Source: an uncultured Actinomycetes bacterium (GTDB lineage Bacteria > Actinomycetota > UBA4738 > HRBIN12). Taken from it: DNA of 64,000 bases. The notes under the pieces were generated by a model. The model was not told where the DNA came from and ran no database searches. It saw only the letters and a program-made list of their open reading frames with translations. How positions within the stretch are numbered: the stretch's first letter is position 1; each line of letters starts with the position of its first letter. The position numbers and the translations under genes were made by a program. The stretch is taken from positions 383 to 64,382 of the forward strand of contig CAWFJU010000028.1 in assembly GCA_963816275.1 (NCBI GenBank), given 5' to 3'. Of the stretch, positions 5,590 to 25,826 are shown in pieces.

Positions 5590-5595
5590 GAGTAT

Positions 5596-6709
5596 CTACG
5601 TGGAGGTCGTGACCTGAGGCTCCCGGCGCAGATGAATCGCAGGATCGTCGAGCCCCTCGGGCGCCTGGTCCGGCCCGGCCGCAGGGCGGAATCCGGGGAG
5701 TCGAAGGACGAACGTGGTGCCGTGGCCGAGCCAGGCTCCGCACCGACACCGTCCCCCCATGGGATTCGACGATCGCCTTGACCATGGCCAACCCGAGCCC
5801 GGTACCCCCTGCACGGTGCTCACGGGCACGCGGCGTGCGGGCGAAGCGATCGAACACGTGGGGGAGCTGCTCGGGCGCGATCCCGACGCCGGTATCCGAT
5901 ACCTCGATGACCAATGCTTCGTCTCGTGCGGAAGCGGCGACCCGAACGTCGTCCCCCGTCTCGGTGAATCGCAGGGCATTCTCGATCAGTGAATCCATCG
6001 CGAGCTCGAGACGCTCGAGGTCTGCCGAGACCCAGCCGTGCACATCGACGTCGAGCGCCCAGTTGCGTGATGCGGTGACGCTCCAGCGACGGACGGTCCT
6101 CGAGAGGAACGGTTCGACCCGGAACTCGCCGCGGCGCAGGAAGTCGGTGTGCTCCGCGGCGGCGAGGATCAGGAGCCGCTCCGACGCGCGCGTGAGCCGA
6201 CTGAGCTCATCGAGGACGACCTCGGCATCCGCCACGATCTGATCGGACGGCGCCGCCTCGAGGATCAGCTCGGTGTGGCCCCGAGCCACCGTGATCGGGG
6301 TCTTCAGCTCGTGCGATGCGTCCCTCGCGAACTCGGCCTGCCGCTCACGCAGCCGCTGCTCGCTCTCGATCGCCCGCCGGGCCCGCTCCGTGTGCCAGAC
6401 CATGGCCAGGAACATCGCGCCCATCAGCGGGATCTCGGTCATCTCGTCCAACCCCGGTCCACCCGCCGAGGCGGCCGCGTGATAGAGCGACCATCCCGTC
6501 ACGAGCATCACGACGGCGAGCACGAGGATGGTCGATCGGAGGCGCCAGAGTCTGATCCCGTACACGATCGTCAGGCTCACCCAGACGAAGTGGAACGGGA
6601 TCGTCTCCCATCCCGTGATGTCGAGCAGCACGGTGAGGTTCGCGAGGGCGAAGATCGCCCACGCGACCTCGACCCACCGCCTACGCAGCACCGACGCGAT
6701 AGCCGACAT
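5596..6709 (-). CDS. Membrane sensor histidine kinase; frameshift at ~5735
   Basis: N-terminal TM helices, H-box DASHELKTP, N-box ENALRF, G1 DTGVG and G2 GTGLGL. The C-terminus GHGTTFVLRLP is in the 5596..5979 frame. Confidence 0.9.
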
Positions 6710-7353
6710 GGCGCACCGTCTCGATCACGTCGTCCCCAAGCTTCGGACGGAGCCGTCCGATCGTGACGTCCACGACGTTGCTACCGAGGTCGAAGTCCAC
6801 GCCCCATACGTCCGAGAGCAGATTCCTGGCGGGACGCGGGCAATCCCTGCTTGCCCATCAGGTACTGGAGGAGCACGAACTCCCGTTCAGAGAGGCTCAC
6901 GGGACCGCGCCCGGAGTCGGCCACCCGCGTGACGGGGTCGAGGACGATCTTGCCCGCCTGGAGGAACCGCTCGCCCGATGGCGGGCGTCTGAGCCGGGCC
7001 TTCACGCGCGCCACGAGCTCGGAGAGCGCGAACGGCTTCGACAGGTAGTCAGACGCACCGATCTCGAGGCAGCGGACCTTCGATTCGACGTCCCCGAGCG
7101 CGGAGAGGACGAGCACCGCTTGCGACGGATTCCGCTCGATCAACCGCTCGAGGACCTCGAACCCGTCGATCCCGGGCAGCAGAAGGTCGAGGACCACGAG
7201 GTCGTACCTGACCGTGGCAGTCAGCGCGAGCGCCGTGCCGCCGTCGCTCGCACGGTCAACGTCATAGCCCTCCGAACGGAGGGCGCGCGACACGAAGTTC
7301 GCGATCCGCTCCTCGTCCTCAACGACCAGCACCGACGTCATAGTGCCAGCCAT
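6681..7353 (-). CDS. OmpR-family response regulator; frameshift at ~6830
   Basis: VLVVEDE, LDLLLPGIDG and KPF receiver motifs. The winged-helix tail LSDVWGVDFDLGSNVVDVTIGRLR...ETVRHVGY is in the next frame and ends at TAG 6681. Confidence 0.9.
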
Positions 7354-7596
7354 CGTAGGGAGACCTACCTAGCTTGACCAGGGGACATGGGTCGGTAGAT
7401 GCGCTCGGCCGCCCAGCCATCAGACCTAGGGCTTCCGACCGTTCCCGAGTCACCCGCCCGTGCCTAGAGTTGCTCGGTACGTACCGCAGCATCGTTACCA
7501 CGATGGCGGTACACCGTCGTCTCTGGAGGAAACCATGGCGAGCATCGAAACCCGGCGGGAACCACCGTCTCGATCTGCTTCGAGAACACGGACGAC

Positions 7597-7938
7597 GTGA
7601 TCCGGGCACTGGCACGATTCAACGACCCGACCGCGGCACGGTCGACCTCGTTGATGGTGGTCCCGCGCCATCAACGGCGCGGCGCGGGCGACGCGTACGG
7701 ATTCGCGTCGTTGTCGTGGATCGAGGAGCATGCCGAGCTCGTCAGGCGGCTACGTGGACTCGAGCCGCGGGAACGGGAGATGCTCCTGCTCTGCTACACG
7801 GAAGATCGGAGCGTCGCAGAGGTCGCCGAGCACCTCGGCATCTCTCGCGTCCATGGCTACCGCCTCCGACGCCGAGCTCTGGAGCGCATGACGATCGTGG
7901 AGGGTCGGCTCGAGGCGGTCTCCACGGCTGCCGGTTAG
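7597..7938 (+). CDS. Small sigma-70 region-4-like HTH protein, 113 aa
   Basis: LEPREREMLLLCYTEDRSVAEVAEHLGISRVHGYRLRRRALERM matches the region-4 HTH pattern. No region 2 is visible. Confidence 0.7.
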   Translation: MIRALARFNDPTAARSTSLMVVPRHQRRGAGDAYGFASLSWIEEHAELVRRLRGLEPREREMLLLCYTEDRSVAEVAEHLGISRVHGYRLRRRALERMTIVEGRLEAVSTAAG

Positions 7939-8243: not shown

Positions 8244-10365
8244 CAGGGGCGCTCGATCGCGTCGAGGCCCAGGCCGGCCAGCCCGACCGCGGTCCCGTCA
8301 AGGGCCAACGGAGTGGAGAAGGTGCAGGCGGAGGTGGCGCCGAGCGAGGTGGGGTGGCATACGACGGCGTCGTCGCCCGTCCCCGTCGCTCCCGTCACCT
8401 TGACGTCGCCTACGGTCGACAGGACGATCGAGCCGTCGGCATCGATCGTGGCGGCGTCGGTATCTTCCGAGTTCCACGTCGCGAGACCCACGTCAGAGGC
8501 GTCCAGGTACATCGCGAGCGTGCCTGAGGTGCTGCGTCCGAGCGACGTGGCAGCGAGGGCGATGAGGTCTTCGTCCTGGATCGCCGTGAGAGACGACGTC
8601 GACCCCTTGCCCGACAGCGACAGCACGACCCGTCCATCGGGCAGGACGTCGACGGCGTCGACGTCCTCGCCGTCCGCCGTGAGACCCACATCGGATCCAT
8701 CGAGGTACATCGAGAATGTCCCCGCCGTGACGTCGCCCGTCGACGCCGCGTCGAACCGGACGAGATCCGAGTCATCGACCGTCAAGCGACGCCGGGAACG
8801 GATCCCGCCGCCCCCAGCGAGATCACGAAGGAGTCAGCGTCGAGACGCGCGAACGCGTCCACCTCGCCCGTCACGCCGACATCGGACCCGTCGAACACCA
8901 TCGAGTAGCGGCTCCCGTCGAACGCCACGACGTCCTCATCCCGCACCGTGACGGAGCCGAGATCGTGCGAGCCCGCCGCCGAGATCGACAACTCGAAGGA
9001 GGCGGGTGGATGCGTCCCGAGCCATGCCTCGGCGGCCGCGACGTCGAGCCGTCCATAGCCGTACACGTCGTCGGGGCCCGCGGGGCCGAGGTCGGCGGCC
9101 CCGCCCGTCAGCGCGGCGATCGTCCGGTCCACGGTGAGCGAGGGATGAGCCGACACGAGGAGCGCTGCCGCGCCTGCCACATGCGGCGCGGCGATCGACG
9201 TGCCCGTGATCGTCTGGAAGAGACCGAACCGGTCTGCCGTGCTGATGCCCGACCCCCGGCGCGACGAGCTCGGGGTACACGCCCGTCGAGCCGCCGCAGG
9301 TCGTGGGACCACGGCCGCTACCGCTCCACACGGCGTCGCTCGCGTTCACCGCTCCCACCGCGAACGCCTCCGGGTAGTTCGCGGGGCTCACGCTGCTGCC
9401 GGTGCCCGGCCCGAAGTTGCCGGCCGCCACGACCGGGAGGATGTTCGCGGCACGGAGCGCCTGCAGGTCCGGCTCCAGGGAGAGGTCGCATCCCGGCGCG
9501 GTGCCGAGCGACCAGGAGAGGTTCACGATGTCGGGAGCGTCCGCGGTGGACGGGATCGCCGTCGGGGTCGAGCGCCCACTGGAACGCCTGATGGATCGCG
9601 GTGAGGGAGCTGGAACCCGCGTCGTTCCAGATACGCGCCGCGATCCAGTCGAGCCCCGGGTGCCATGCCGATGGCCGTGCCGCCCGAGTCGCCACCCACC
9701 ATGACCCCCACGGTTCCCGTCCCGTGACCGGTCAGGTCGATCGGCGACGTGGTGTGCTGCCCGTACGGATCGAACCAGCTCCCGGGCGTCCCGCGGAACG
9801 AGCCGGCCAGGTCCGGGTGGGAGGCGTCGACCCCGCTATCCAAGCTCGCGACGACGACACCGGACCCGTCGATCCCCTGGTTCCATAGGGTCGGAGCCTC
9901 GGCGGTGGCGATATTGACCTCAGCGGTGGTCGCGGCGGGAACCACGGAGACCGCATCCGGCCGGACCGCTGCGACGTCGGGGCGGCGTGCGAACGATCTG
10001 ATCACGCCGGGCGTCGCGCGCACCGACACCGCGTTGGCGATCCAAAGGGGGGTCGCGCGTCCGGAGAGCCCGGCGCGCCCAGCGGCCGCCAGCGTCGCCA
10101 TCAGGTCGGTCCGCGCCGCGCGCGACGATCGGCGGAGGCTCGGCACCACCGTCGCCGGACTTGCGGCCCGCGTCGCGGGGTCTCGGAGCGTGATGATCAC
10201 ACGGAGGCGCTCCCCGGGCGGCGCCGTCGACAAGGCTGCCCGCAACTCCCCCGAGAGCGGGGCGCGCATCGCCTGCGACCCGCCCGGGGTCGCGCCGGCG
10301 GGGAGGGACGTGCCGAGCGTGGTCAGCAGGACGAGGACCGAGGCGATCCTCAGCGCCCTCCTCAC
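8243..10365 (-). CDS. Secreted S8 (subtilisin-family) serine peptidase with C-terminal acidic repeat domain; several frameshifts
   Basis: Signal peptide, prodomain, triad LDSGVD / GHGTGTVG / GTSIAAPHVAG and oxyanion VAAGN, spread over ORFs 9523..10365, 9318..9695, 8936..9526, 8782..9312 and 8243..8785. Confidence 0.85.
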
Positions 10366-10377
10366 CTCACCCTCCCT

Positions 10378-10956
10378 CTAGATCTGCGCCGTGATGCCGT
10401 CGATCCGCACGTCGTCGATCACGACGGAGACCGTCGTGCCGCCTTGGATCGCGCCTCCGGGGTTGGGGAAGAGGAGGTTCACGCTCTCACCGGCCTTCAA
10501 GCCCACGTGATGCGCCATCCCGCCCGCGACGTGGATCACGGTGTTCGATCCGTCGGGCACGAGGACCGGCATGGCCGCATCTCCATGGGTGTGGCCGGTC
10601 TTCGGCTGCAGGTGGACGCCGAAGAGCTGCGCCGCCTTGGCCGGGTCGATCACGGTCATCCTTAGGTCCAGGAGACCTCCGGATGCCACAACGCCGAGCA
10701 TCGTCAGTCGCATCCCGTACTCGGCCTCGAACGCCTGCGGTGTCATGGCGGTCGAGTTGGCGATCTCGGCCGGAGGGGCCGACGTCGACCGGATGTCGAA
10801 TGCGAGCGCGCCCACGAAGAGCGCGATCACGGCCAGCCCGGCGACGACCGCCGTCCGAGAGGGTCGTCGACGATCCGGACGGAGCGGTTCCAGGTCGACG
10901 GGCGAGCCGAGGTCTTCCGAGGTACCCCGGCTCGCCCGTGTCGTGATCTGGCTCAC
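10378..10956 (-). CDS. Membrane-anchored hypothetical protein with His/Met patches, 192 aa
   Basis: Single TM helix (TAVVAGLAVIALFVGALAF), motifs GHTHGD and GGMAHHVG. GTGA overlap with the upstream gene. Confidence 0.7.
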   Translation of the reverse strand: MSQITTRASRGTSEDLGSPVDLEPLRPDRRRPSRTAVVAGLAVIALFVGALAFDIRSTSAPPAEIANSTAMTPQAFEAEYGMRLTMLGVVASGGLLDLRMTVIDPAKAAQLFGVHLQPKTGHTHGDAAMPVLVPDGSNTVIHVAGGMAHHVGLKAGESVNLLFPNPGGAIQGGTTVSVVIDDVRIDGITAQI

Positions 10957-13900
10957 GGTGTGATCACCGTCCTCCGCATCGACGTGAAGGTGTCGAGGAA
11001 GAGGCGGCCCGTGGCGTTCTGAGTACCGGTATTACCGGTCAGTGCCGCCGCGCCGAACCGGATCGACTCGATCGAGTAGCCACCCGTCTGGGCGCTGTTC
11101 CAGGTGGTCAGGGCTCCTCCTGTGAGGTTGCTCGTGAATGCGGCGCCGTTGACCGAGATCTGCAGCTTCGGCGTGCCGCCCGAGTTGGACGAGAGCCAGC
11201 TGATCTCGATCCGGTTCGCAGCGCTCGGGGTCAGCGCGAACGTGCCGGAGGTCAGAGTGCCGCCGTTCGTCCGCGCCAGCACCATCCGCACCTGGTACGT
11301 GCCCGCGCTGGGTCGGAGGAGCTCGACCCGGAACGCCTGGGTCCCCGAGCCGTTGTTGTTCACCCCCGTGTACCCGGCGAGCAGGGTGATCTGGCGAGTG
11401 TTCGCGAAGGTCACCCCGTTCGGGTTCAGGTAGAACCTGGCGTGGTACGCGGCGTCCTGCCTCGGCGAGTTGTCGGTCAGGTAGCTCGACTGGAAGGAGC
11501 CCGAGGTGTTGCATGAGCTGGACGTGTTGCAGAGCGCCACCTGAAGACCCTGTGTGGAGCCGGTCCCCATCGACGCTGCGGCGACGACGCTCATCCGAGA
11601 GGCACCCGTCGTGGTTCCGAGCCACGCGGAAGTGGTGCCTGACTCGAACCCGTTCGAGAAGATCGTGTTCGGGTAGACGACGCTCACCGGGACCGTCGTC
11701 TTGACGGTGCTCCAGTTGCCGGCTCCATCTCGCGTGCGAACCGAGATCGTGTGGTTCCCCGGGGCCCAGCCCAGCGCGACGTAGTCGATCGTGGCCGTGA
11801 ACGTTTCGGCGGCGTCCCCGAGGGGAGCCGTCGCGGTGCTCATCGGCGTCCCGTGACCGACGCCCGGATCGGTTCCCTCGAACCACTCCGCTCCATACAG
11901 GCCTGAGCTGAAGGCCGGGTCGGTCGCGTTGGCCGTGACCGTGAAGGTCGTGCCTTCGCTCGCTCCTGAGTTCGTTGGGCTCGGGGCGGCCGTCGGTGTC
12001 GACACCGACGGTGCCGCCTTGTCCACGACGAGCGTCACGGTGTTGAAGGTGGTGCTCCAGTTCCCGGCGGCATCGCGGGCATGGATCTTCACCGTGTGGA
12101 GGCCGTCGGTGAGCTGCGTGATCGTCGACAGCGGGATGTCCGCGTACCCCATCTCCGTCGGCGAGTCGAACGCGCCGTCGGAGGGAAGGAACTTGATCCC
12201 GTTGCCGTCCACCGGTGACGCCACGTCGATGAACGCCTCGGCGGCCTTCACGTTGGAGACGTTGCCCGGATCGGCGAAGTTCTGGATCAGCCGGATCGTC
12301 AGGGTGGCCGAGTCCACACCGATCTTGCCGTTGGTCATGGTGGACGGGCAGGGTCGTCCACGTCGTCGACGTCGGAGCGGTCTTGTCGACGACGAGCTGG
12401 ATCGAGCCAGCTCCGACGTTGCCCAAGGCGTCGCTCACCTCGATCTCCACCAGGTACGGACCTTCGGGCGCTCGGGATCGCCGCCGTCGGGATCGAGGCG
12501 CTGAACGCCGAGACCGGGTTCGTCGTGGTGGCGAGGGTCAGGTTGGACCACGCTCCGCCGTTCACGCGGAACCGCGCCTGGGGCGAGTTGGAGATATTGC
12601 TGCCGCCCTTGTTCGTGTCGTTCGCGGTGCCCGACAGGGCGACCGCGGCCGATCCGTTGGTGGGGTTGGAGGTGAGGGTCACGGAATTGATCGCCGGACC
12701 GTCATGGTCGACGGTGAAGCTGTCCGAGTTGAACGCACCCCAGTTGGTGCCGTCGGTCGCCCGGATGATCACCTGATGCGAACCGGTCAGGAGCGCCGGC
12801 GTGATCGGGATGCCCGACCACGTGAGCCCGCCCGGCCCGGCGGCCACGGTCGTCGCCGGGATCGCCGTGCTGCCCGTCGAATCCAGGTAGAGCTCCGCGC
12901 CCGTCGGCAGTCCCGACGCGGTGGCGGTGACGTTCACCGTCGACCCGCTCACCATGGAGGGAGCGATCACGATGCTCGTGACCTTCGGGCCGGTGGCCGG
13001 TGGTGTCGAGGTCGGCGAGACCTCGATGAAGGTCATCATGCCGCCGAAGTCGTAGATCCGGCCGTTGCCGGTGGTCGTGGTACCCGCGTTCGCGTTGTGC
13101 AGCAGGCGGGTCTGGTCGAAGAGCGGGAACCGCATGGTCGAGGGACCCGTGAGGGCAGCGGCAGGGATCGCGATGATCCCGTCGGCCGTCTCGCCGGGGG
13201 CGATCGAACGTGCGACCTCGGTCTCGTGCGCGGTGAGGACCCCTCCGTCGGACGAGACGAACCGCTGCTGGAGTCCGAGCGTGCCCATCGAGTGCGGGAG
13301 CAACCCGCCGTTCACGTACCGCAGGAGCAGGTTCGTGCCGGCGGCCGCCACGATCGGAGCCGTGGTCGGGATAGGCCTGGCCGTTGATCGTGAAGTACCG
13401 TGGCGAGTAGTTGCGGAGGTCGAAGTTCCAGGGTGCCGAGCTCGCGTTCAGCGCCGGATCGATCTCGCCGAGCACGACCACGGCTTCATCGGTGAAGTCG
13501 GTGTTCGTGTTGAGCCCCTGGTCGCTCTGAGCCGTCGTCGCCACCCAGTCGGCGGGACGCACGATCAGGACGCCGACCATGCCGAGCGCCACTTGGTACT
13601 GGGTCCCTGGAAGCAGGCCGGCCTCGTAAAGGTAGGTACCGGGCTTCAGCGGCATGAAGGTGTACGACTTCGTGCCGTTCGGTGCCACGACCCGTGAGGT
13701 CAGGGACCATGCCCTGCGCCTGGATATCGAGCGCGGTGTCCCGGGTCAGGCCGTTGTGGAGCTGGATCGTGCAGCTCGTGCCGACCTTGGCGACGACGAC
13801 GGTGTCCGGGATCGACACAGCACCTCCGGTTGAGGCTGCGTAGCCCCAGACGTTCACCGTCGTGGTCGGTGCGATCGTCTTCGTGCCGGCCTTGGCGTAG

Positions 13901-14037
13901 AGGTCGACCGGACCGGCGGCGCAGTCCAGGCCGCCGACGAGCGCGGCGTGCGCGGCCGGCGGGGCAAGGGTCAGCAGGGTCGCCAGCATCGCCAGCGCGA
14001 GCGCCAGGCTGATGCGGAGACGGGCGGACGGCTTCAT
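10953..14037 (-). CDS. Two-domain cupredoxin (MCO-like) protein 'C' lacking Cu ligands, plus ~4 Ig-like repeats and a C-terminal beta-sandwich; about 4 frameshifts
   Basis: Signal ending AHA; VWGY, PGTYLYEAG...GMVGVLIVRP and YFTINGQAYPD cupredoxin hallmarks; repeats ending HxxxxxxxDxAGNWS; final domain starts IFSNGFESG. Alternative starts at 14055 and 14070. Confidence 0.75.
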
Positions 14038-14066
14038 CGTGTCTCTCCGATCCATCGCGTTCCCTC

Positions 14067-15367
14067 TCATGGACACACCGGCTGGAAGTTGGCGTCGACC
14101 GGGTCGACGCGGGTGTAGGTGATGGGACCGGTCATGACGACCGCGCCCGGTGAGGTGATCTGGTGCAGCGAGTGGTTGTGGGCGAGGATGTAGTACTCGC
14201 CGCATTCGTTCTGCGAGGAGAAGCCCGGAGGCAGGGTGCCCTGCACGCCCAGGTACGGGGTGCCGCCGTAGAACGGACCGACCTCGAGGTTCGGCGAGGT
14301 TCGGCACGATCACGTCGACCGGGTTCTGCGGGCTGTACTGGTTGTCGTCCTGCCAGGTGAAGAGCGCGTCCCACGTCTGGCCGGGTCCCACGGGCACCGA
14401 GAACTTGTCGAAGGGCGGCGCGTGACCAGGTTCCCGTCCCTCCCGACCACGAGGGCGTTGTTCCCGTGCGGGTGGAAGGGGTAGTCCTCCGTGCCGACGC
14501 TGATGAATCGGTCGAGCGACGGGAGCGGATTGTGCGTGGCGTCGTAGGGCAGGATCTCCGACATCGACCCGTAGGGCTGGTTCGGGAGCCACGAGGCCCC
14601 GTTATCGGCGATCGAGTCGGGGAACCCGCGGCCGTTGATCATCCAGTAGCGCGGGTGGTAGTTGTTCATGTTGAACGCCTTGCCCGGCCTCGGCGCGGGC
14701 GTGCAGCGTCGGGTCGATCTCCGAGAGCAGGATCAGGAACTCGGCACCCGGGTTGAATTGGGTCGAGCCGTCGTTGTAGGCGAAGCTCGCGCCCATCGAG
14801 GGCCGCACGACGAGGGCCCCGAACAACCCCATCTGCACCTGCTTCGCGGGATCGGTGCCGCTCTGGTACAGGAAGGTGCCGGGGTGGTCGGCGGTGAATT
14901 GGTAGGTCACCGACCCGCCCACGGCGGCCGTCTGCGCGAACGACGACAGCGAGCCGCCCGCGCCACCGAACTCGGGCTGCGACGGAGCGCCGTCGGCCGA
15001 TGACGTTCGCCTGGCCCGGGAAGACCAGCGAGGTCGCCTCGGGCAGGTTGTTGTTCCTGAGGACGATCGTGACGACGTCACCCTGGTTCACGCAGAGCAC
15101 CGGGCTGGGGTGCTGGAAGGGCTGACCGCTGAGCGCGTAGCCCCACATGAAGGACGTGGCGCCGTCGGGAAGGTTGATGTAGCCCGTCTTCGTCACGAGC
15201 GTGAACGTGGGGTTGTGCTCCCTCGGACGTAGCAGACCATCCCCACGTTGTGAGAGCTGCCGACGGCCGCGCCGGCGGGATCGATCGCCCGACGTCGCGA
15301 CCATCACGGCCAGCGAGGTGAGCAGCACCAGCGCGGCGATCGTCGAGCGCTTGATCGTTCGGGTCAT
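14067..15367 (-). CDS. Two-domain cupredoxin (MCO-like) protein 'B' with His pairs only in domain 2; about 5-6 frameshifts
   Basis: Hydrophobic signal; MWGY, PGTFLYQSG...QMGLFGALVVRP and WMINGRGFPD; FHPHG at 14466-14474 and AHNH at 14172-14180. Ends ...QPVCP-TGA at 14067. Confidence 0.8.
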
Positions 15368-15393
15368 CGGGATGCCTCTCTCGGTCGCGGCGC

Positions 15394-16733
15394 TCACGGG
15401 TTCACCGTGCTTCCGTAGTCGTTGGGGAACCGCTGCGTTGGCAGGATGAAGCTGGGTGGGTACACCCACACCTCGGTGGCCTGTCCGCCGAACCCGCCCG
15501 GCGCAAGGTTGTTCGAGCGCGTGTACGCGCGGTTGTAGAGGACGTAGCGGTCCGGCCCGGGCTGGTTGCCCGAGTGGGGCGGCGCCGTGAAGATCGCCTC
15601 GGTGCTCTCGCCGGCGCCGAGCATCAGCGTGTCGGTGTCGTACGGCGCGGTCAGGAGCGTCGCGTCCTTGCCGACGACCTGCATCGGGATGCCCGTGAGG
15701 GTCATCGCCGACTGCTTGTAGCCGAGGTTCGCGAGCCGGAGCGCCACCCTCTCGCCGGCGTTGCAGGTGATCAGCGACGAGAGCGGCTGGTACTGGAGCT
15801 CGGGACGGCCGGGAGGGGCGAGCAGGTCGCCGTCGGTGTCCTGGCCCACGGCGGTGTTGTGCCCGAAGTGGACGAACCGCCAGCTATTGAATGCGGTCGC
15901 GGTCGGATCGAGCGGCGCGTGAGGGGCGATCGTGTCCGGGTAGACCCGGCCGTTCAGCATCGAGAAGTCGGCGCGGTAATCGGTCCACTCTGGTAGCTGG
16001 ATGTGCGCGTCGGCCCAGTGGGCCTCGGCCCAGACCTCGGACAGGATCATCCCGTACTCGCGGTTGAACTGGGTCGTTCCCCCGTCGTTGTCGTAGATGA
16101 AGTTGTCGCCCTGCGCCGGCTTGATGAACACCAGCCCGGTCATGCCCATCTGGACGTGCTCGGTGTCCTCGACGTGGCAGTGGAACATGTACGTTCCGGC
16201 GTCGTTCGGCTTGTAGACGTAGGTGAACTCGCTGTTGGCGGGGACCGCAACCGAGCCCGACGGCTCGCCGTCGAAGAACGGGATCACGTCGCGGAACCCG
16301 TGGAAGTGCACGGTGTGGGCGTCGAAGAGGTCGGGGCGCTGCGCGAGCCCGAGGTTCGTGAGCTTCACGCGGAACTCCTGGCCCTTCTTCAGCCAGAACA
16401 TCGGCGCGGAGTGCTGCGCCTTGTTCTTCTGGTTCGCGATCTGCGCCGCCGAAAGGCCCGTGATGTTGTGGAACCCGAACATGTAGGTCGTGAACGGCGA
16501 TCCGGGTGCGTAGCTGTCCGGGTGGAACGGCGGGATCGCCGGCGTCTCCGGCAGCCAGATCCAGCCGTCGGTGCCCCCGAAGTGGATGTCGGCGGGGCGT
16601 ACCCGGTGCGGCGGTCGCTGTCGACCGGCATCAGGACGTTCTTGGCGCCGATCGTCACGAGGCCGGCGCCGGCTGCCGCCACGCCGCCCCACTTGATGAA
16701 GTCACGGCGGCTCAGCTTGCTCGTACCTGCCAT
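15394..16733 (-). CDS. Tat-exported two-domain multicopper oxidase protein 'A' with T1 site in domain 1; one frameshift at ~16600
   Basis: Tat motif SRRDFIK; HTVHFHG at 16300-16317; HCHVEDTEHVQMGM at 16141-16182; SD GGAGGA upstream. Confidence 0.88.
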
Positions 16734-16783
16734 GGGGGCTTCCTCCGTCCCGTTGCGGTGTCGTTGGTCGCGAGAAGGAGCCA

Positions 16784-19700
16784 TCAGAGGGTCCCTCCCC
16801 TGAAGGTGTCCGCGGTGGATCCGATGGTGCCGAACCGGATACCGATCCGGCCGGTTCCCGATGGTCCAGGTGTTGGCGCCCGTGGTCGGGAGCTGGACGC
16901 TCCCGAGCGAACGTGGTCGTCGCGCCGTTGATCGAGTAGACGGCGACCATGCCGTCCGAGTACGCGGCCGCGAACAGGACCTCGTTGTCGCTGAGGTTCT
17001 CGTCGAGGTCGGCGTACTGGGTGAAGGCGCCGCCCGCGTTCGTCGTCGTCTCGACGTAGATGCCGTCGGTCCCTTGCGTGTCGAACCGGACCCGGATGTA
17101 GTTCGTCGGGTTCGCCGTCGTCCCGCCGTTCGCCTTGAGGATCAGGACGATTCGTCGCGGTTGCCGCTCGTGTTGGACGTCAGCTGGATCGACGCGGCCT
17201 GGTTCGGTCCGAAGACGGCGAGTTCCAGATCGCCGAACGCCGCCGTCGTTCAACTGGTTCGCGACGACCTGGTTGCCGTTGACGCGAAGGTCGATCGCGG
17301 CGCCGGTGTTGGCCTGGCTCCAGCTGGCGCCCAGGCTGTTCGCGTTGGCGCGGTTGAAGTTGTCGAGCAGCGCGAGCGTCGGAGGCAGCACCAGATCGCT
17401 GTCCGGCGCACTGGTGTTGTTCGCCGGGCTGGGATCCGTCGATGCCGGCAGGCACGCCGATCGTCGCGCAGTTCGTGATCGTCCCGAACCGGGCCGTCAC
17501 GGTGAAGGTCCTCGTGAAGGTGGCCGTCCCGCCCGGGGGCAGGCTGGCCGTGCCGGTGAGGTTCCCAGATCCGCCTGCCATGCAGCCGCCGGCCGGAGCC
17601 GAGCAGGCCCACGTGCCGCCGGTGAGACCGGCCGGAACGGTGTCGGTCACGGGAGCGCTCGTCACGGAGCTCGGTCCGGCATTGGACGCGACGATCGTGT
17701 ACGTGACGGTATCGCCGGTGACCACCGAGGTCACACCGTCGGTCTTCGTGATGCTCAGGTTGGCCTGGCCGAGGATCGGGTCGGTGTCGGTGGCGCTGTT
17801 GTTGCCGCGGGTTCGGGTCGGTGACGCCGCCGGGAGCCGCGATCGTCGCGGTGTTGGCGAGCGACCCTGACGCCGTACCCGACAGCGTGGCGTTGAGCAC
17901 GAAGGTCGCGCTCCCGCCCGACAGCAGGTTGACCGTGGCGTTGATGTTGCCCGAGCCCGTCGCCGGGCAGGTCGAGCCCGCCGACGCCGTGCAGGTCCAG
18001 GACGCACCGGTCAGCGCCGCCGGCACCACGTCCGTCACCGTGGCGCCGATCGCGGCGCCCGGTCCGGCGTTGGTCGCGACGATCGTGTAGCTGATCGCGG
18101 CACCCGCGACCGCGTTGGCCGCCCCGTCGGTCTTCGTGATCGACAGGTTGGCCGGGCAGCCGGTGCTCACGATCTCGTCCGCGCCCTCGTCGAAGCCGAC
18201 CGCCGCGTTGCAGGTCGGTGCCGACGGGCGGACCTGGCCGTCGATGTCGGTCGTCGGGGCGCTCACGCCGGACTTCGACGCCGCCCCGGCGTTGATCGCC
18301 GTGGATCCGGCCGCCAGGTGGAAGTCACCGAGCAGCGACGGCGGCAGGTCGAGACCCACGATGTGCGCGCCGACGAACGCCGGGTTCTGACGCCAGGCGT
18401 TCAGGTTCACCGACACGACGTATGGGTCGGCGAAGCCGGGGTCGACCCCGACCTGGTTCGTCGCGCTCGGGTTCGTCCCGGTCGTCACCTGCAGCATCGT
18501 GTTCGTCGGCGACAGGAGGAAGGTCGGGTCCTCTCCACCCATGTCCCAGTAGTTGATGGGGGACGGGTCACCGGCGAGGCCGATCCCGGTCACCATGCCG
18601 GCCGCGAAGTCGTTCGACGCCAGCTCGGTTGTGCCAGAACACGTTGTTGAACAGCAGCGGGTTGCTGAACAGCGGCGAACCGCCGGGCAGGGTGTTCTGC
18701 AGCGCCGTGCTGTTCCGGCTCGTGGACAGCCCTGCCGCAGCGGCCGAGCCGTTGCTGGTCGACGCGGTCGCGGTCGTGACGTTCTCCGCGACCGTGTTGT
18801 TGAAGATGCGGACGTTGGGCGCGTCGTTGAGCGAGATGCCGCCGCCTTCATGCGCCGACACGTTGTCGACGATCATGTTGTTGAAGACGTTCATCTGGCC
18901 GGTTCCTGCGTTCAGGAACCTGATGCCGCCGCCGTCGTCGCCTCCGAGGTTGCCCAGGATGACGTTGCCGTCGATCGTCACAGGCCCGGAACCGGGCGAC
19001 AGTGCACCGGCGGTTCGCGGGCAGCTGCCCGGCGATCATCACGCCGCCGGCCTCGTCGAAGGCCTGGTTGTAGTAGATGCGGTTGTCGTGGATGCGGCCG
19101 CGTCGGGCTCAGGCCGTAGGCCGAGATCCCGCCGCCGTACTCGGTCGAGTAGTTGCCGCAGATGTCGTTGTTCGCGATCTCGTAGTCGTCCGCGCCCGCG
19201 AACAGCGCGATGCGCGCCGCCGAGGTTCGTGCCGGCGTTCGCGACGATCCGGTTGTGCGCGATGCGCAGGTCGTCGTTGTGGTTGTCGGGGTCGGGCGTG
19301 ATGTGCGGCGTGCCGACGCGGATCGTGCCGTACGCGCCGCCGTTGTGCTCGACGATGTTGTTCGTGACCTGCAGGCTCTGGATGTAGGAGTTGGCGAAGA
19401 TCGCGCCGCCCTGGGTGAGAGCGACCTCTCCGCCGATCTCGCCGAGCTCGCCCGGCAGGCCCTGCTGGTCACCACCGCGGATGTCGAACCCGTCGACGCC
19501 GGCCGGGTAGCCGGAGCCGTACGCGTTGTGTCGACATCGCGAGGAAGTAGAGGACCTGGCCGGTGGAGATGTCGGGGTTGCCAACCCAGCTGGGCGTTCC
19601 GTCCCCATCCAGGAACGTCGAGATCTTGTCCGCCCAGTCGGTTGTGAGCTGGCTGTCACCGGCGAAGGCCGCGCCATCCAGGATCGAGCCACGGACCGAC

Positions 19701-22700
19701 CCGTCGGGGCTGCCCGGACCGACGCCCTGGAGCTTCAGGGGCTCACGTGATGATCAGGTTCTCGTAGTACGCCCCGCGCGGGTTCAGCCGCGGGTTGGCC
19801 GTGGCGGGACCGGGGTAGATCACGATCAGGTCGTCCTGCGCGCTCGCCGCCGCCGCGTCGATCGCGTCCTGGATCGCGTGCGGCGGGGTCGCCTCGTCGA
19901 ACTGCGTGGCGAAGAACGACCGCGGGCCGGGAGTGACCTCGGGCGAGGTTCCCACCTCGTACACGAGCGGCGTGTAGCCGGTGACGTTCCCGCCCCCGAA
20001 GTTGTCGACGCGAAGCTCGGTGCCAGTGGTCGTGCCAGCACCAGCGACCCGGATCCCGAGCCTGCCGCCACCCGTGGCGAGGGCGATCGGCCACGGAGTC
20101 ACGGTTGCGGTCACGTTGACGCTGCCGACGACCTGCGTCTCGTTCTTGTAGACGATCACCGTGCCGTCCTCGAGCGCACGGGCGCCGAGTCGGTCGGTCG
20201 CGGCGAACGTCACGCCGGTGAAGGTGGCCTGGTTGACGATGGTGTTCGTGTTCTGGGCCTTCGTGGAGACCACCACGCGACTGTTCGTGGCGTTGTACGC
20301 GACCTTGATCCAGCCCGAGTTCGAGCTTGATGGGTTCGGGTTACCGCCGCCCGAGAGCTTGAGGTACAGGCCTGCTTCAGTCGCCGCGGTCGCCACTTGG
20401 ACGAACGTGAACGCGGCCTCCTGGTTCGGCCCGTACGTCGGGCCGCCGTTCGTCGAGCCGGTCCACCGCGCGTTCGCGGTCCCTCGGCCCCGAAGGTAGC
20501 CGCCCGTAACGACGAAGGAGTTGGCCCCGCCGTTGTTGTTGTCCAGGGTCCAGTTGTTCCCGTTGGCGAACGTCGAGAGCACGCCCGTCGTGGGGAACGC
20601 GCTGTAACCCAGCACGTGGAACGTCAGACCGTTGATCGTGCGGGCGCCGCTCGCCGTGACGACCGTGAGCTGCTTCGGGCCGCTCGGCGTGCCGGCCGGC
20701 ACGGTGACCTGCAGGTGCGACGCACCCCAGACGGTGGGCATAGCTGTCCCGTCGAGGAGCACCTGACCGGGCGTCGAGCCGAAGCCGAGGCCATCGATCG
20801 TGAAGGTCTGGTTCCCGAGCCGTGTGTCCACGTACGGCTTCGACACACGGTAGAGCTCCGGGGTCGTGGGGGCACCCGCCGGGTCGTTCACCGGGCAGGT
20901 CACCGCACGCTGGGTCTGGGTCCCGGGGATATTGAGCCACACGCCCACCTGCGTCGGGGCGTTGTCGGCCGGGATCATCCCGCCGGGGGTCGCCTCGAAC
21001 TGCGCGGCGATCGGGCGGAACTGCGGGTTGAAGTTCGGGTTCAAGGCACCGGGCACGCCGGGGTCGTTCCCGACGAAGCGGTAGACGTTCTGGCAGACGC
21101 CGGACGGCGTCGGGCAGTTGATGCGGTTCGTCGAAGGCAGCAGCACATCGACGAAGCCGTTGTAGTCCGTCTCGACCGTGGTGATCAGACGGTTCGTGTA
21201 GTCATAGATGCCGACCGGGGCGAAGGCGACGCCGGCCTTCTCGCCGTACATCGTGGACTTCAGGTCGGCCGAGAAGTTCAGGTCATCGATCATGTACTCC
21301 CACAGGCGCGCCGGAAGCGGCACGTCGGTGAACACGTTGAACGTCGGCACGATCGAGCGGCCGTTGTTGAGTGGGACGAGCTTCACGTCGCAGAGCGGCT
21401 TGGCCATGCCTCTCGTATGGAGAGCCGCCGATGTCGACGAACGTCGCGTTCTCGGTGGGGGTCGACGCGGGCACGGAGATGTCCGGACCCCCCAGGCCCG
21501 AGGGGTCGGTCAGGGTCGTCGCCGGGTAGTCGTCGTTGCCGTCCGCCACGTCGACCTGATGGAGCGCCCCGGCGCACGCCGGCGGCACGGCCTGCGGGAT
21601 CAGGGCGTCGCCGTTCCCGATGTTGATGTCCTCTTCCCGCGTGAACTGGTAGAGCGGGTGGCCGGCTTCGTCCTCCTGCGGCACGACGCGGACGAGGTAG
21701 TCACCGGCGGTCAGCGACGTGAACTCCCCTCCCTCGCACAGGGGGTTGGCGGGGTCGTCGGCGACCACGGTTCCGTCGAAGCAGCCGTCGCCGAAGCCGT
21801 AGTTGCCGTCGACGCTCGCGCCGAAGTTGTCGCCGAACTGGACGCCGTACATGTAGCTGTCGATGCATCGGGCGGTCTGGTCCTGGTACCCGGTCTCGGG
21901 TGAGCTCGGGTCGTACGGAAGCGCTGCCTGGTCGATCCCGAACTCGAGCGGGTTGCCTTCGGCGTCCCTCGCGACGCATCCGGACGGGCTGCTCCCAGGT
22001 CTCGGTCACGTAGGTGTTCAGGAGCGGCCCGAACTCGTACCCGCCCGTGGCGGGGTCGAGCGCGTAGGTGCCGTCGGCGTCGCACGGAACGCTCCCGTCG
22101 GCGGGGCAGTCCACGGGCGCGTACAGCTCGACGGTCTGACCGGACACGCCAGGCTGCCAGTCCTCGACGGCGGCGTACCGCGGGTCGAGCTCGTTACGGG
22201 TCGTGTCGTAGCTGACCGTGCCCACGATCCCGCCGTTCCGCGGGTCGAGGCCGCCGGTCGCACCGGTGGCGTCGTAGGCGTGGACGCCCCAATCGACCGT
22301 GCCGGACTGCCCGATCACCGACAGTGTGTTCAGGTCGACGCCTGGGTCGAGGATCGTCGTGGGGTCGGGCTGGTTGTCGGCCTGGTAGGTGACGCCCGTC
22401 GTGAAGTAGGAGTCGCTGTACGCCTCCAACACGACCCAGGTCGTGAAGGGGTACCCGGACTCGAACTCGTAGAAGCCGTTCTGGTCGGTCGTGGCGGTGT
22501 TCGTGCCGCGGTCGGCCAGGGTGTTGTTGCGCGAGCGCAGGGTCAGCGTGAAGTTCGGGACGCCGAGCTCGCCCGGATCACGGACGCCGTTCCGGTTCGT
22601 GTCGCTGAAGACGTAGCCGCTGTAATAGGTCCACCAGCCGCTCAGCGCCATCACGCCGAGGTCGACGGTCTCGCCCGTGAAGGGGGCCGCGCCCTCGCCG

Positions 22701-24089
22701 ACGGTGACGTTCTTCACCATGAGGATGTAGTCCTGGGGCTCGTCCCACCAGGTGATCGTGTAGTTGCCCGGGGCCAGGTTGGGGACCTCGGAAGCGGCCG
22801 CTCGCGTCGCCGCGCCCGATCCACGCCACGTTGTCGTTCAGCTCCATGCTGTCGATCACGATCCACGGCCGGTCGATCGGTCCGGCGAGCTTGCCGCCCT
22901 GGTGCACGCCGATCCCGCCCATGGCGTCGTCGTACTGGGGCGTGTAGTACTGCACCGCGTCGACCACGCCCTTGATCTCGCCGGTACCACCGGGGAGGGC
23001 AGGAGCGCGCCAGCACTTCGTCGTGAACTGACCGCAGGTGCCGGCGGCCGTGCTGAATCCGCCGCGGGCAGACCGGTGCCGGTCATCGTCGCCGTCGGCT
23101 CGGGCACGAACCCGAAGATCGCGATCGGCACGGGCTCGGCGCCGACCGCGAACTCGGTGTCGAGGCCGGTGTCGCCCTCCATCGGCCACACGTCCCAGTC
23201 GTGGTTGCCCTCGAGCGTGGTCGTCTGGATCCACTTCTGACCGTCGGGCGCGATCACCGACAGGGTGTAGCGGTCGGTCCCGAGGTTCGGGATCGTGAGG
23301 ATGCCGTTCGCGTCGCTGTAGCAGCCGTTGCCGACCTGGGCGACGACGGGTCCGCCGTCGACCCACTCGATATCCGTTCGGACCGCTCGGGTCGGCCGCA
23401 CGTAGGTGGTGCAGAGGGGGTTGCCGAAGACGTCGGTGGAGACCTGGCCGAGCACGTCGGCGATCAGGCCCTTGAAGTCGGACAGGACGGGCTCGGTGTC
23501 GTCGAACGCGCCGTTCGTCAGCGTGTCCGCGAAGACCTGCGCCGCGGACCGTCGCCGTCGGAAGCGGCGTCGGCTGCAGCGGGACCTCGACCGGCGTGGA
23601 CTCCTGGAGCGGGATCGAGAAGTGGGCGCCGTCGAGCTTGTAGCCGTCGGCGAGGACGGAGATGAGGTATCGGCCGTTCGGGAGGTCGAGGCCCTGGAGG
23701 TCGTTCAGGTCGGCGTCGGTCCCGATCGCCCAGTTCCCGTCCACGTCCTGCGCGACCGGGCTCGAGCTCGGGATGCCGGCGGTCGACAACCAGTTGCAGG
23801 AATCGGGGTAGCCGGGATCGAGCGCGGAGCAGCCGGAGCCGGGCTCGGCGTTCCGCTGCTCGGTCGTCGCCGTGTTGTCGACGTTGATGATCCAGCGATA
23901 GGACGTGACGGCGTCCCCCTTCGTCACGGGAGCCGAGCCCGATCCGTCCGGGGCCCACGGCTCGGTCCGCGCGCTGACCACGTCGATCGTCAACGTGTTG
24001 GTCGCGGCCTGGGCGGCCTGCATCGGGAGCTGGGTCATCAAGCCCGTCACCATCGTGAGGGCCACGACAACGTGAAGCGTCCTCCGCAT
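16784..24089 (-). CDS. Giant (~2400 aa) secreted multidomain protein: SdrD-B/Cna-like, IPT/TIG, parallel beta-helix, 2x DUF11-like, 2x lectin-like beta-sandwich; many frameshifts
   Basis: SD GGAGGAGAGG, signal MRRTLHVV...AAQA; VFSDTNRNGVRDPGE (SdrD-B-like); FTIDGLGFGSTPG (IPT); Asn-ladder repeats GGGI..NNxIxxN; NLSITKTDG...YTIVAxNAGP twice. Ends ...DTFRGGTL-TGA at 16784. It could be more than one gene if a break is real. Confidence 0.72.
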
Positions 24090-24150
24090 CTGAATTCCTC
24101 TCCTCCGGCGCCTTAGCGCTCGGTTCCTGTCGGGGATGTCCTGATCTGCC

Positions 24151-24302
24151 TCGCTCACCCGCTCACGAGCGGGTGGGCGACGCTGGCGAGGCGGTCGTGG
24201 AGTCGGGCCTCGACCGCCTCGCCAGGTCGTTGCGTCGGTCCCGGGTTGGGCGAACCGGCGGGACCCTGAAACGGAGAAACGGCCCCCGGGAGGGACCGTT
24301 TC
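24151..24302 (-). promoter_or_regulatory. Four consecutive hairpins in the putative 5' leader of the copper-oxidase operon
   Basis: Inverted repeats at 24151-24180, 24183-24225 (perfect 15 bp), 24237-24265 and 24276-24302 (11 bp, followed by a pyrimidine-rich tail on the minus strand). Confidence 0.55.

Positions 24303-25748: not shown

Positions 25749-25826
<78 letters not shown>

Follow-up and report, generated by a model that had tools for sequence, protein, structure and literature searches.

Three adjacent paralogous cupredoxin genes with divided copper ligands as a candidate heterotrimeric multicopper oxidase

We have analysed a stretch of 64,000 nucleotides from an uncultured Actinomycetes bacterium (Actinomycetota; UBA4738; HRBIN12), comprising positions 383 to 64,382 of contig CAWFJU010000028.1 in assembly GCA_963816275.1; the whole of this stretch is called the window below. 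From approximately 24158 down to 10378 its minus strand carries a run of co-oriented genes with a G+C content of 68-69%. The run includes three adjacent genes, termed here A, B and C, each encoding a protein with two cupredoxin domains. A sequence-only reading of the window had interpreted the three as a candidate multicopper oxidase that is split between its subunits, such that no chain would work alone. Our analysis supports this interpretation, and goes beyond it in placing the three genes within a larger conserved cassette that has a giant scaffold protein, and in finding natural fusions of B with C and of the giant protein with A. We assign a probability of about 0.6 to the reading that A, B and C must combine into a heterotrimeric ring, ordered A:C:B, which has one copper cluster and is tethered to the giant protein.

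In the window the first domain of subunit A carries a complete type-1 copper site and four cluster histidines, and the counterpart stretches of its second domain contain no histidine. Subunit B has a Sec-type signal and two cupredoxin domains, of which the first has no ligands and the second has two HxH motifs. Subunit C has no HxH pair in either domain. Against Pfam, A scored over the cut-off for PF07731, PF07732 and PF00394, B scored 38.8 bits with PF07732 (cut-off 21), and C scored 40.6 bits with PF07732 and 22.9 bits with PF00394.

Two sets of loci were compared with the window. The genome set came from a scan seeded with A, using one genome per species; this gave 216 relatives, and 80 loci were kept. 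The metagenome set, also of 80 loci, was seeded with a protein in which B and C are joined (P0121), and represents a more divergent clade that is ~45% identical. Core alignments of A (alignment A1), B (A2) and C (A3) were built from intact genes of 73 loci, the smallest combined A+B+C core set being 1026 residues.

The division of ligands is retained in both sets. In alignment A1 the residues H93, H96 and H98 of the HxxHxH motif and H138, C139, H140, H146, M149 and M151 of the HCH motif are invariant. All eight ligands of A are present in 80 of 80 genome-locus sequences, with no histidine at the aligned positions of domain 2, and the same set is kept in all 56 metagenome-locus sequences. In B the invariant histidines are H245 and H247 (first HxH) and H348 and H350 (second HxH) of alignment A2. 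Both motifs are found in every genome-locus (76/76) and metagenome-locus (78/78) sequence, and domain 1 has no HxH in any of the 76 from the genome set. C is devoid of HxH pairs in 75 genome-locus and 51 metagenome-locus sequences; a relic histidine lies upstream of its first domain-2 motif in 68 of the 75. The partition is also kept in all four divergent genomes from an even sample of the phylum, and in a third clade, that of the methanotroph family of Methylobacter. Since the same pattern recurs across genome, metagenome and divergent loci, it is not due to chance.

Profile-profile comparison with hhalign related A to B with E 2.6e-25, B to C with E 2.4e-52 and A to C with E 1.8e-22. By this comparison the three subunits are paralogues, and the histidines that have been lost or kept occupy the same alignment columns. 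Thus the histidines of HxxHxH in A align to Ser/Val/Pro in B and to Thr/Leu/Gln in C, and the HCH of A aligns to Glu-Ser-Gly in B and Glu-Ala-Gly in C. In the other direction, the HPH of B aligns to Thr-Leu-Thr in A and to residues other than histidine in C. Comparison of the B profile with the Protein Data Bank (PDB) aligned its domain-1 stretch to the HxxHxH and HCH motifs of a solved archaeal oxidase, and the same substitutions were seen. Together A and B carry the exact set of ligands of an oxidase, i.e. a type-1 site and eight histidines in four HxH motifs, and no single chain does so. All of the motifs quoted for A, B and C in the sequence-only reading were found in the minus-strand translations. 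Its claims that the genes are adjacent paralogues, and that the ligands are complementary (domain 1 of A, domain 2 of B, none in C), hold at homologous positions that are invariant among the relatives.

Co-occurrence of homologues with the same partition had been proposed as a check, and the three genes were found adjacent wherever the contig allows. B follows A directly in all 78 genome loci that extend into B, and C follows B in all 72 that have at least 2 kb beyond B; the order is A-B-C in every locus long enough to show it. In the metagenome set A was found upstream of B wherever at least 1.3 kb is available (55 of 55 loci), as was C downstream of B wherever there is at least 2 kb (47 of 47). 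No homologue that occurs alone, and none with a full set of ligands, was found among the loci of the two sets. In the even sample of the phylum (401 genomes) A was present in five at E <=1e-60, each with B and C adjacent; the four besides the genome of the window belong to the divergent clade. The mean pairwise identity across four phyla is 0.77 for A, 0.73 for B and 0.58 for C, and the identity matrices of the three correlate with r of 0.71-0.81, indicating that the genes travel together. B is conserved about as well as A despite having no type-1 site and only half of a cluster, which argues against its being a decaying duplicate.

The conserved cassette is larger than the three oxidase-like genes. 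Its order is a giant protein of ~2200 residues, then A, B and C, then a small membrane protein, followed in actinobacteria by a CopC-CopD fusion. Of the 81 sequences scanned (the 80 loci and the window), 71-75 have the giant gene upstream of A. The first 1140 residues of its product align in one piece to the Xylanimonas protein in 57 other loci, with identities of 47-87%. By Pfam the giant protein is all-beta, with an N-terminal string of beta-sandwiches (SdrD_B, SpaA, CarboxypepD_reg and TIG); its right-handed beta-helix gave a weak match to Beta_helix that lies under the cut-off (E 1.6e-4). An AlphaFold2 model of the N-terminal 1089 residues had a mean predicted local distance difference test (pLDDT) score of 73.4. 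A Foldseek search with this model returned generic beta-sandwich strings of pilin, MSCRAMM, TIE and alpha-2-macroglobulin type, with query TM-scores no greater than 0.10, and no enzyme domain or functional clue among them.

A homologue of the small protein was found after C in 65 of these 81 sequences, and 61 intact open reading frames (ORFs) for it were extracted; in the window its start overlaps the stop of C. The protein combines a membrane anchor at the N-terminus with a domain of ~110 residues, and it matched no Pfam family (also at loose thresholds) or NCBIfam family. A histidine-rich loop is present in many members (an example being that at 13549-14064 of locus L011), not all; it is missing in L006. 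The CopC-CopD fusion follows in 39 loci, all of them actinobacterial.

These neighbours bear on the question of whether there is an oxidase here at all. CopC-CopD and a small membrane protein adjoin the three genes as in copper-handling loci, and the giant protein resembles a string of beta-sandwiches of adhesin or pilin type. A might then be a blue-copper protein of electron transfer or copper binding, B and C pseudo-enzymes with binding or structural roles on a giant surface protein, and the histidine sets a means of sequestering or delivering copper. We think this very improbable, the least probable of the alternatives discussed here. The residues that are invariant are exactly the eight His, the Cys and the Met of a full oxidase site, distributed over two chains in three clades and down to ~35-45% identity. 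The ligands at all of the other positions have been lost, and it is difficult to account for so selective a pattern unless there is a trinuclear cluster.

Some relatives join components of the cassette in one chain. A search for longer relatives of B gave nine protein clusters (P0121-P0129, 866-1177 residues) in which B is connected to C by a linker of at least 130 residues that includes a small extra domain. The C unit has no internal signal peptide, and both ligand states are kept. As a Rosetta-stone link deduced from the sequences, this supports the view that B and C act in one complex. The fusion is limited to one lineage.

Among longer relatives of A there are many proteins of 2000-2300 residues with SdrD_B, Beta_helix and related domains and a C-terminal A-like module (A'). 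Fifteen long A-like proteins were read, of which 11 are continuous fusions of the giant protein to A' without an internal signal peptide. The other four (P0187, P0188, P0190 and P0213) were rejected as read-through of two genes, having either an internal signal peptide or apparently out-of-frame junk before the A module. An open frame of 2277 residues in genome G438 was also rejected, because it comprises two genes with stops between them. P0207, which is one of the 11 and comes from the isolate Methyloprofundus sedimenti, aligns to both the giant protein and the A of Methylobacter, so that in a sister clade the giant protein and the type-1-bearing subunit exist as one chain. We note that in P0190 and P0213 the giant-like part that precedes the A' signal peptide ends with Gly-Gly-Cys, then a hydrophobic helix and then basic residues, an arrangement that resembles a C-terminal sorting signal.

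The solved structures closest to A, B and C in sequence are those of two type-C two-domain oxidases, PDB 2zwn (the metagenomic mgLAC) and 3g5w (from Nitrosomonas europaea), with E 8e-11 to 1.6e-13. The same two were the best Foldseek matches of the model of the B core (E ~1e-14). In this model domain 1 has pLDDT values that are mostly >90; the HPH loop and the last 70 residues, including the second HxH, are poor. The poorly modelled surface is compatible with one that becomes ordered only against a partner, and proves nothing more. The two-cupredoxin fold is common to the cassette proteins and the type-C enzymes, and A has the domain-1 type-1 site of the latter, with HxxHxH and HCH..H..M. Thus in A the type-1 site lies in the first of the two cupredoxin domains, which is not so for B or C. 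The origin from a type-C two-domain oxidase proposed in the sequence-only reading agrees with these relationships. The type-C enzymes are homotrimers with four HxH motifs on every chain and three clusters in each ring. In the cassette, by contrast, the motifs are divided between two chains and the third chain has none, so that a ring could have at most one cluster; four HxH motifs were not found in one chain of A, B or C in any sequence examined.

In the six-domain oxidases (ceruloplasmin, hephaestin and the Bacillus protein MnxG) the cupredoxin domains form a ring with one trinuclear cluster at one interface, the other interfaces having lost theirs. It is to enzymes of this type that the sequence-only reading likened the three genes. 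MnxG works with the small non-homologous proteins MnxE and MnxF. The cassette differs in that its six domains come from three genes (two where B and C are fused) rather than a single polypeptide. The genes encode their own signals, and the greatest number of domains joined is the four of the B-C fusions. The type-1 site is in the first domain in the cassette and in the last domain of the six-domain enzymes. Activated coagulation factor VIII (A1/A2/A3-C1-C2) offers a further analogy: it is a heterotrimer whose three units are paralogous, each with two cupredoxin domains, and the extra C-terminal binding domains on one of them recall the tail of C. Factor VIII is not an oxidase, however; it is eukaryotic and is derived from a single chain by proteolysis.

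NirK is likewise a trimeric two-cupredoxin ring with an inter-subunit copper site, and is among the sequence and fold matches of the cassette proteins. It differs in having a three-histidine type-2 site, where the cassette keeps the HxH pairs and eight histidines of an oxidase. With the NirK model (TIGR02376, cut-off 296.3) A, B and C scored 28, 34.1 and 35.4 bits. The CopA/PcoA model (TIGR01480) gave 31.7-48.7 bits against a cut-off of 479, and the CueO model (NF008205) gave 19-34 bits against 525. All three assignments were rejected.

MofA of Leptothrix is described as a large extracellular putative manganese oxidase with four copper motifs in one chain, encoded in an operon with mofB (mip-like) and mofC (a cytochrome c) (PMC8218464). 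A preprint reports MofA homologues in actinobacteria and deltaproteobacteria. The likeness to the cassette lies in a large secreted protein with multicopper oxidase motifs and a copper chaperone nearby, and the size is like that of the 2000-2300-residue giant-A' fusions. MofA was rejected as a relative on the basis of its published description (PMC8218464). The A' module has two domain-1 motifs only and is followed by B and C. As far as the description goes, the neighbours differ also, those of the cassette being B, C, the small protein and CopCD instead of mofB and mofC. No heteromeric two-domain oxidase was found among open-access papers and bioRxiv, and no family for the cassette among curated family models, in keeping with the earlier remark that no characterized example was known.

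From these data we propose the following arrangement. In two-domain oxidases two neighbouring chains share the trinuclear cluster, one with its domain 1 and the chain before it with its domain 2, from which it follows that B would precede A in the ring. The third place would have to be occupied by C, because a second copy of A or B would leave an orphan half-site of four histidines. The ring would be built like the homotrimer of the type-C enzymes and yet have a single active site. Domain 1 of A would provide the type-1 copper site (His, Cys, His, Met) and four histidines, and domain 2 of B would provide the other four histidines of the cluster. Domain 2 of A would face domain 1 of C, and domain 2 of C would face domain 1 of B, all four of these surfaces being ligand-free. 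Electrons would pass from the type-1 site of A by way of the Cys-His bridge to the cluster between A and B, where O2 would be reduced to water.

A twin-arginine motif is present in 70 of 72 A sequences, and the signals of B and C are Sec-like. A would be exported folded by the twin-arginine translocation (Tat) pathway and B and C by Sec, so assembly of the ring and its loading with copper should occur outside the cytoplasm. One or both of these processes are probably assisted by the conserved small membrane protein and CopC-CopD, and the ring is probably attached to the co-encoded giant protein with its beta-sandwiches and beta-helix.

In the metagenome set the ex-ligand positions at the putative copper-free interfaces carry new residues that are themselves conserved. 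The last ex-histidine site is Arg in domain 2 of A (54/56) and in domain 2 of C (39/51), and the first ex-histidine of the HCH motif is Glu or Gln in domain 1 of B (76/78) and of C (44/51). We infer, and predict, that Arg and Glu at these positions face each other across the two copper-free interfaces of the proposed ring.

The place of C is the point at which a different reading has most to offer. A and B might be the catalytic pair, as a dimer or in some higher-order assembly on the giant protein, and C a separate accessory whose degenerate cupredoxin module and Ig-like tail serve as an anchor, in substrate binding or as a chaperone; the stoichiometry would then be other than 1:1:1. The lower conservation of C noted above would suit such a role, as would a tail that varies among lineages and a C-terminal domain that C has in common with the giant protein. 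We regard this as unlikely, if less so than the other alternatives. C retains a complete two-cupredoxin module with conserved ex-ligand positions, is present in every locus that has room for it, and is fused to B in nine protein clusters. Moreover, an A-B pair has four domains, too few to complete the ring of six that is known for this fold. The tail itself is diverse, and a Pfam search at loose thresholds added nothing for it. In many actinobacterial cassettes one repeated propeller-like domain forms the C-terminus of both C and the giant protein (e.g. 6851-7810 and 12500-13470 of L011), and the Ig-like (Big_13) tail of C in the window is unlike the propeller-like tail of C in Xylanimonas. 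In other lineages, distinct from those in which B has a tail, C has N-terminal extensions of at least 400 residues of Ig-like or cadherin-like repeats. The B tail is an extra C-terminal domain of ~250 residues in one subclade (L127, L133, L142, L150 and similar metagenome loci; P0132, P0133 and P0138).

Several points weigh against the A:C:B ring. What the comparisons show is the partition of the ligands, the paralogy, the strict co-occurrence, the fusions and the likeness in fold to the type-C enzymes; that the subunits assemble, their order and ratio in the ring, its loading with copper and its attachment to the giant protein are inferred. The order of the genes is A-B-C, which differs from the A-C-B order of the ring, and the long linker of the B-C fusions joins termini that the model predicts to be non-adjacent, a gap that such a linker could span, so that the order in the ring receives no support from the fusion. 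B and C were in one frame in none of the 53 loci holding both in the metagenome set, which was seeded with the B-C protein P0121; C has its own signal peptide there. The different signals (Tat for A and Sec-like for B and C) exclude export of the three as a complex. In clade 1 the Arg is absent from domain 2 of C. The poor HPH loop and C-terminal HxH in the model of B alone may equally well stem from a shallow alignment. The cassette is rare, with five carriers in the 401 genomes of the phylum sample, and a protein search with A alone found no orthologue in 12 sampled congeners of the genome of the window. Finally, the copy in the window is frameshifted and may not be intact.

As to the substrate, we would guess at a metal ion (Mn, Fe or Cu) or an extracellular polymer, on the grounds that three invariant acidic residues flank the type-1 histidine. 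These form an invariant Glu-Asp-x-Glu sequence (positions 142, 143 and 145 of alignment A1) immediately N-terminal to that histidine. In addition, there is a strictly conserved histidine-containing stretch in the inter-domain linker of A (positions 200 and 205). Either could be a site for a cationic substrate.

Taken further, with confidence somewhat short of even, the cassette might encode a hitherto unrecognized four-part extracellular machine. It would be a pseudo-six-domain A:C:B oxidase on a giant scaffold, with its own copper-delivery proteins, carried as a mobile cassette by Actinomycetota, Chloroflexota, Myxococcota and methanotrophic Gammaproteobacteria and performing an as yet unassigned extracellular oxidation of a metal or a polymer in soils. 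In evolutionary terms it would be a living intermediate on the way from the homotrimeric two-domain oxidases to the single-chain six-domain enzymes of ceruloplasmin type, with the B-C and giant-A fusions as steps.

The evolution of multicopper oxidases from two-domain trimers to three- and six-domain chains has been argued mainly from sequence logic. If the proposal of an obligate heterotrimer with complementary loss of ligands is correct, it would be the missing stage of gene duplication caught alive, and a natural experiment in pruning the catalytic sites to one per ring. There would also be a practical consequence. Annotation pipelines label each gene as a generic 'multicopper oxidase domain-containing protein', which hides that none of the three would work alone; A expressed by itself as a candidate laccase or manganese oxidase would give an inactive protein. 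The family is not marginal, its carriers including many soil and water bacteria.

Carriers in the genome set are Actinomycetota, Chloroflexota, Myxococcota (a metagenome-assembled genome (MAG) of Anaeromyxobacteraceae and a MAG labelled 'delta proteobacterium') and Methylobacter tundripaludum SV96. Cultured Actinomycetota with the cassette belong to Xylanimonas, Cellulomonas, Humibacillus, Cryobacterium, Actinotalea, Intrasporangium, Nocardioides and Lacisediminihabitans. The members in Cellulomonas, Xylanimonas, Cryobacterium, Humibacillus, Intrasporangium, Nocardioides and Methylobacter tundripaludum make the idea directly testable. In the third clade, that of the methanotroph family, the giant gene is followed by an A' with a Sec signal and then by B' and C', and the partition is unchanged.

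A protein search with A gave 3172 matches at E <=0.001, other oxidases included, and the best 120 of these are ~60% identical across phyla. Such identity between phyla in a cassette of patchy distribution points, from the sequence comparisons, to lateral transfer as a unit. A profile search also found a clade-2 cassette in congener G198 (L087), with proteins ~42-44% identical to those of Xylanimonas; it would therefore appear that two types of cassette circulate within the genus of the window genome. Some genomes have two copies of the whole cassette: a Caldilineaceae genome (L028 and L032, on one contig ~19 kb apart), an Ardenticatenaceae MAG (L019 and L066) and G438 (on C17 and C46).

The features of the cassette in the window are collected in Table 1. 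The twin-arginine signal of A was found in a separate frame, ORF 16389-16784 (Pfam TAT_signal, E 2.5e-7), and on this basis the start of A was placed at 16733. This single frameshift, close to the signal peptide, is the only one in A. Comparison by tblastn indicated at least four frame pieces or changes in B and at least three frame changes in C, at least two of the latter in the cupredoxin module; there are at least eight across A, B and C. The giant gene is in at least nine frame pieces, the Xylanimonas protein matching 24065-18162 in alternating frames, and the downstream S8 peptidase gene is in three.

Table 1. Position of the cassette and its features in the window (window numbering)
Feature	Position	Strand	Basis
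Giant secreted protein gene	16790..24158 (both ends approximate)	-	tblastn of intact Xylanimonas protein; start from ORF 22578-24158
Subunit A	15394..16733	-	ORFs 15394-16692 and 16389-16784; Pfam Cu-oxidase_2, Cu-oxidase_3, Cu-oxidase, TAT_signal
A domain 1, HxxHxH: one type-1 His and two cluster His	16300..16317	-	Residues 126-131 of ORF 15394-16692
A domain 1, HCH-x5-H-x2-M-x-M: two cluster His, type-1 Cys, type-1 His, Met	16141..16182	-	Residues 171-184 of ORF 15394-16692
Subunit B	14080..15367 (3' end approximate)	-	ORF pieces 14666-15469, 14602-15081, 14310-14669 and frame of 13486-14592; tblastn
B domain 2, first HxH (HPH)	14466..14474	-	Residues 66-68 of ORF 14310-14669
B domain 2, second HxH (HNH)	14172..14180	-	Counted back from end of tblastn high-scoring segment pair 14696-14088
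Subunit C, signal peptide and two-cupredoxin module	13019..14037 (start approximate)	-	ORFs 13486-14592, 12702-13688, 12335-13351; tblastn
Subunit C tail, Ig-like (Big_13) and C-terminal domain	10953..13018	-	ORFs 12335-13351, 10953-12338; Pfam; tblastn
Small membrane-anchored protein, 192 residues	10378..10956	-	Single ORF
S8 peptidase	8782-10365	-	Downstream gene, three frame pieces

The number of frame changes raises the question of whether the window holds a decaying cluster of pseudogenes in which the frameshifts are real, and the absence of A from the 12 congeners and the different type of cassette in G198 could be taken in the same sense. We consider this quite unlikely. The giant gene and the S8 peptidase gene next to the three are broken in the same way, for which reason the frameshifts in A, B and C look like indel noise of the assembly. 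With 29 contigs, a completeness of 64% and 0% contamination, the genome has features that are usual in indel-rich assemblies. Just two in-frame stops occur within the aligned stretches, both in out-of-frame runs. Furthermore, the A of the window is 93% identical to its closest relative, an intact protein of 442 residues; it is 62% identical to that of Xylanimonas.

A tRNA-Arg (ACG) gene (25749-25826, minus strand) lies directly upstream of the cassette, and the G+C content is slightly lower in the cassette (0.68-0.69) than in the flanks (0.71-0.74). Together with the lack of A in the 12 congeners, these features may mark the cassette in the window as a transferred island. A gene for a large histidine kinase (HisKA and HATPase_c; 3767-6709) lies on the same strand, ~3.7 kb beyond that of the small protein.

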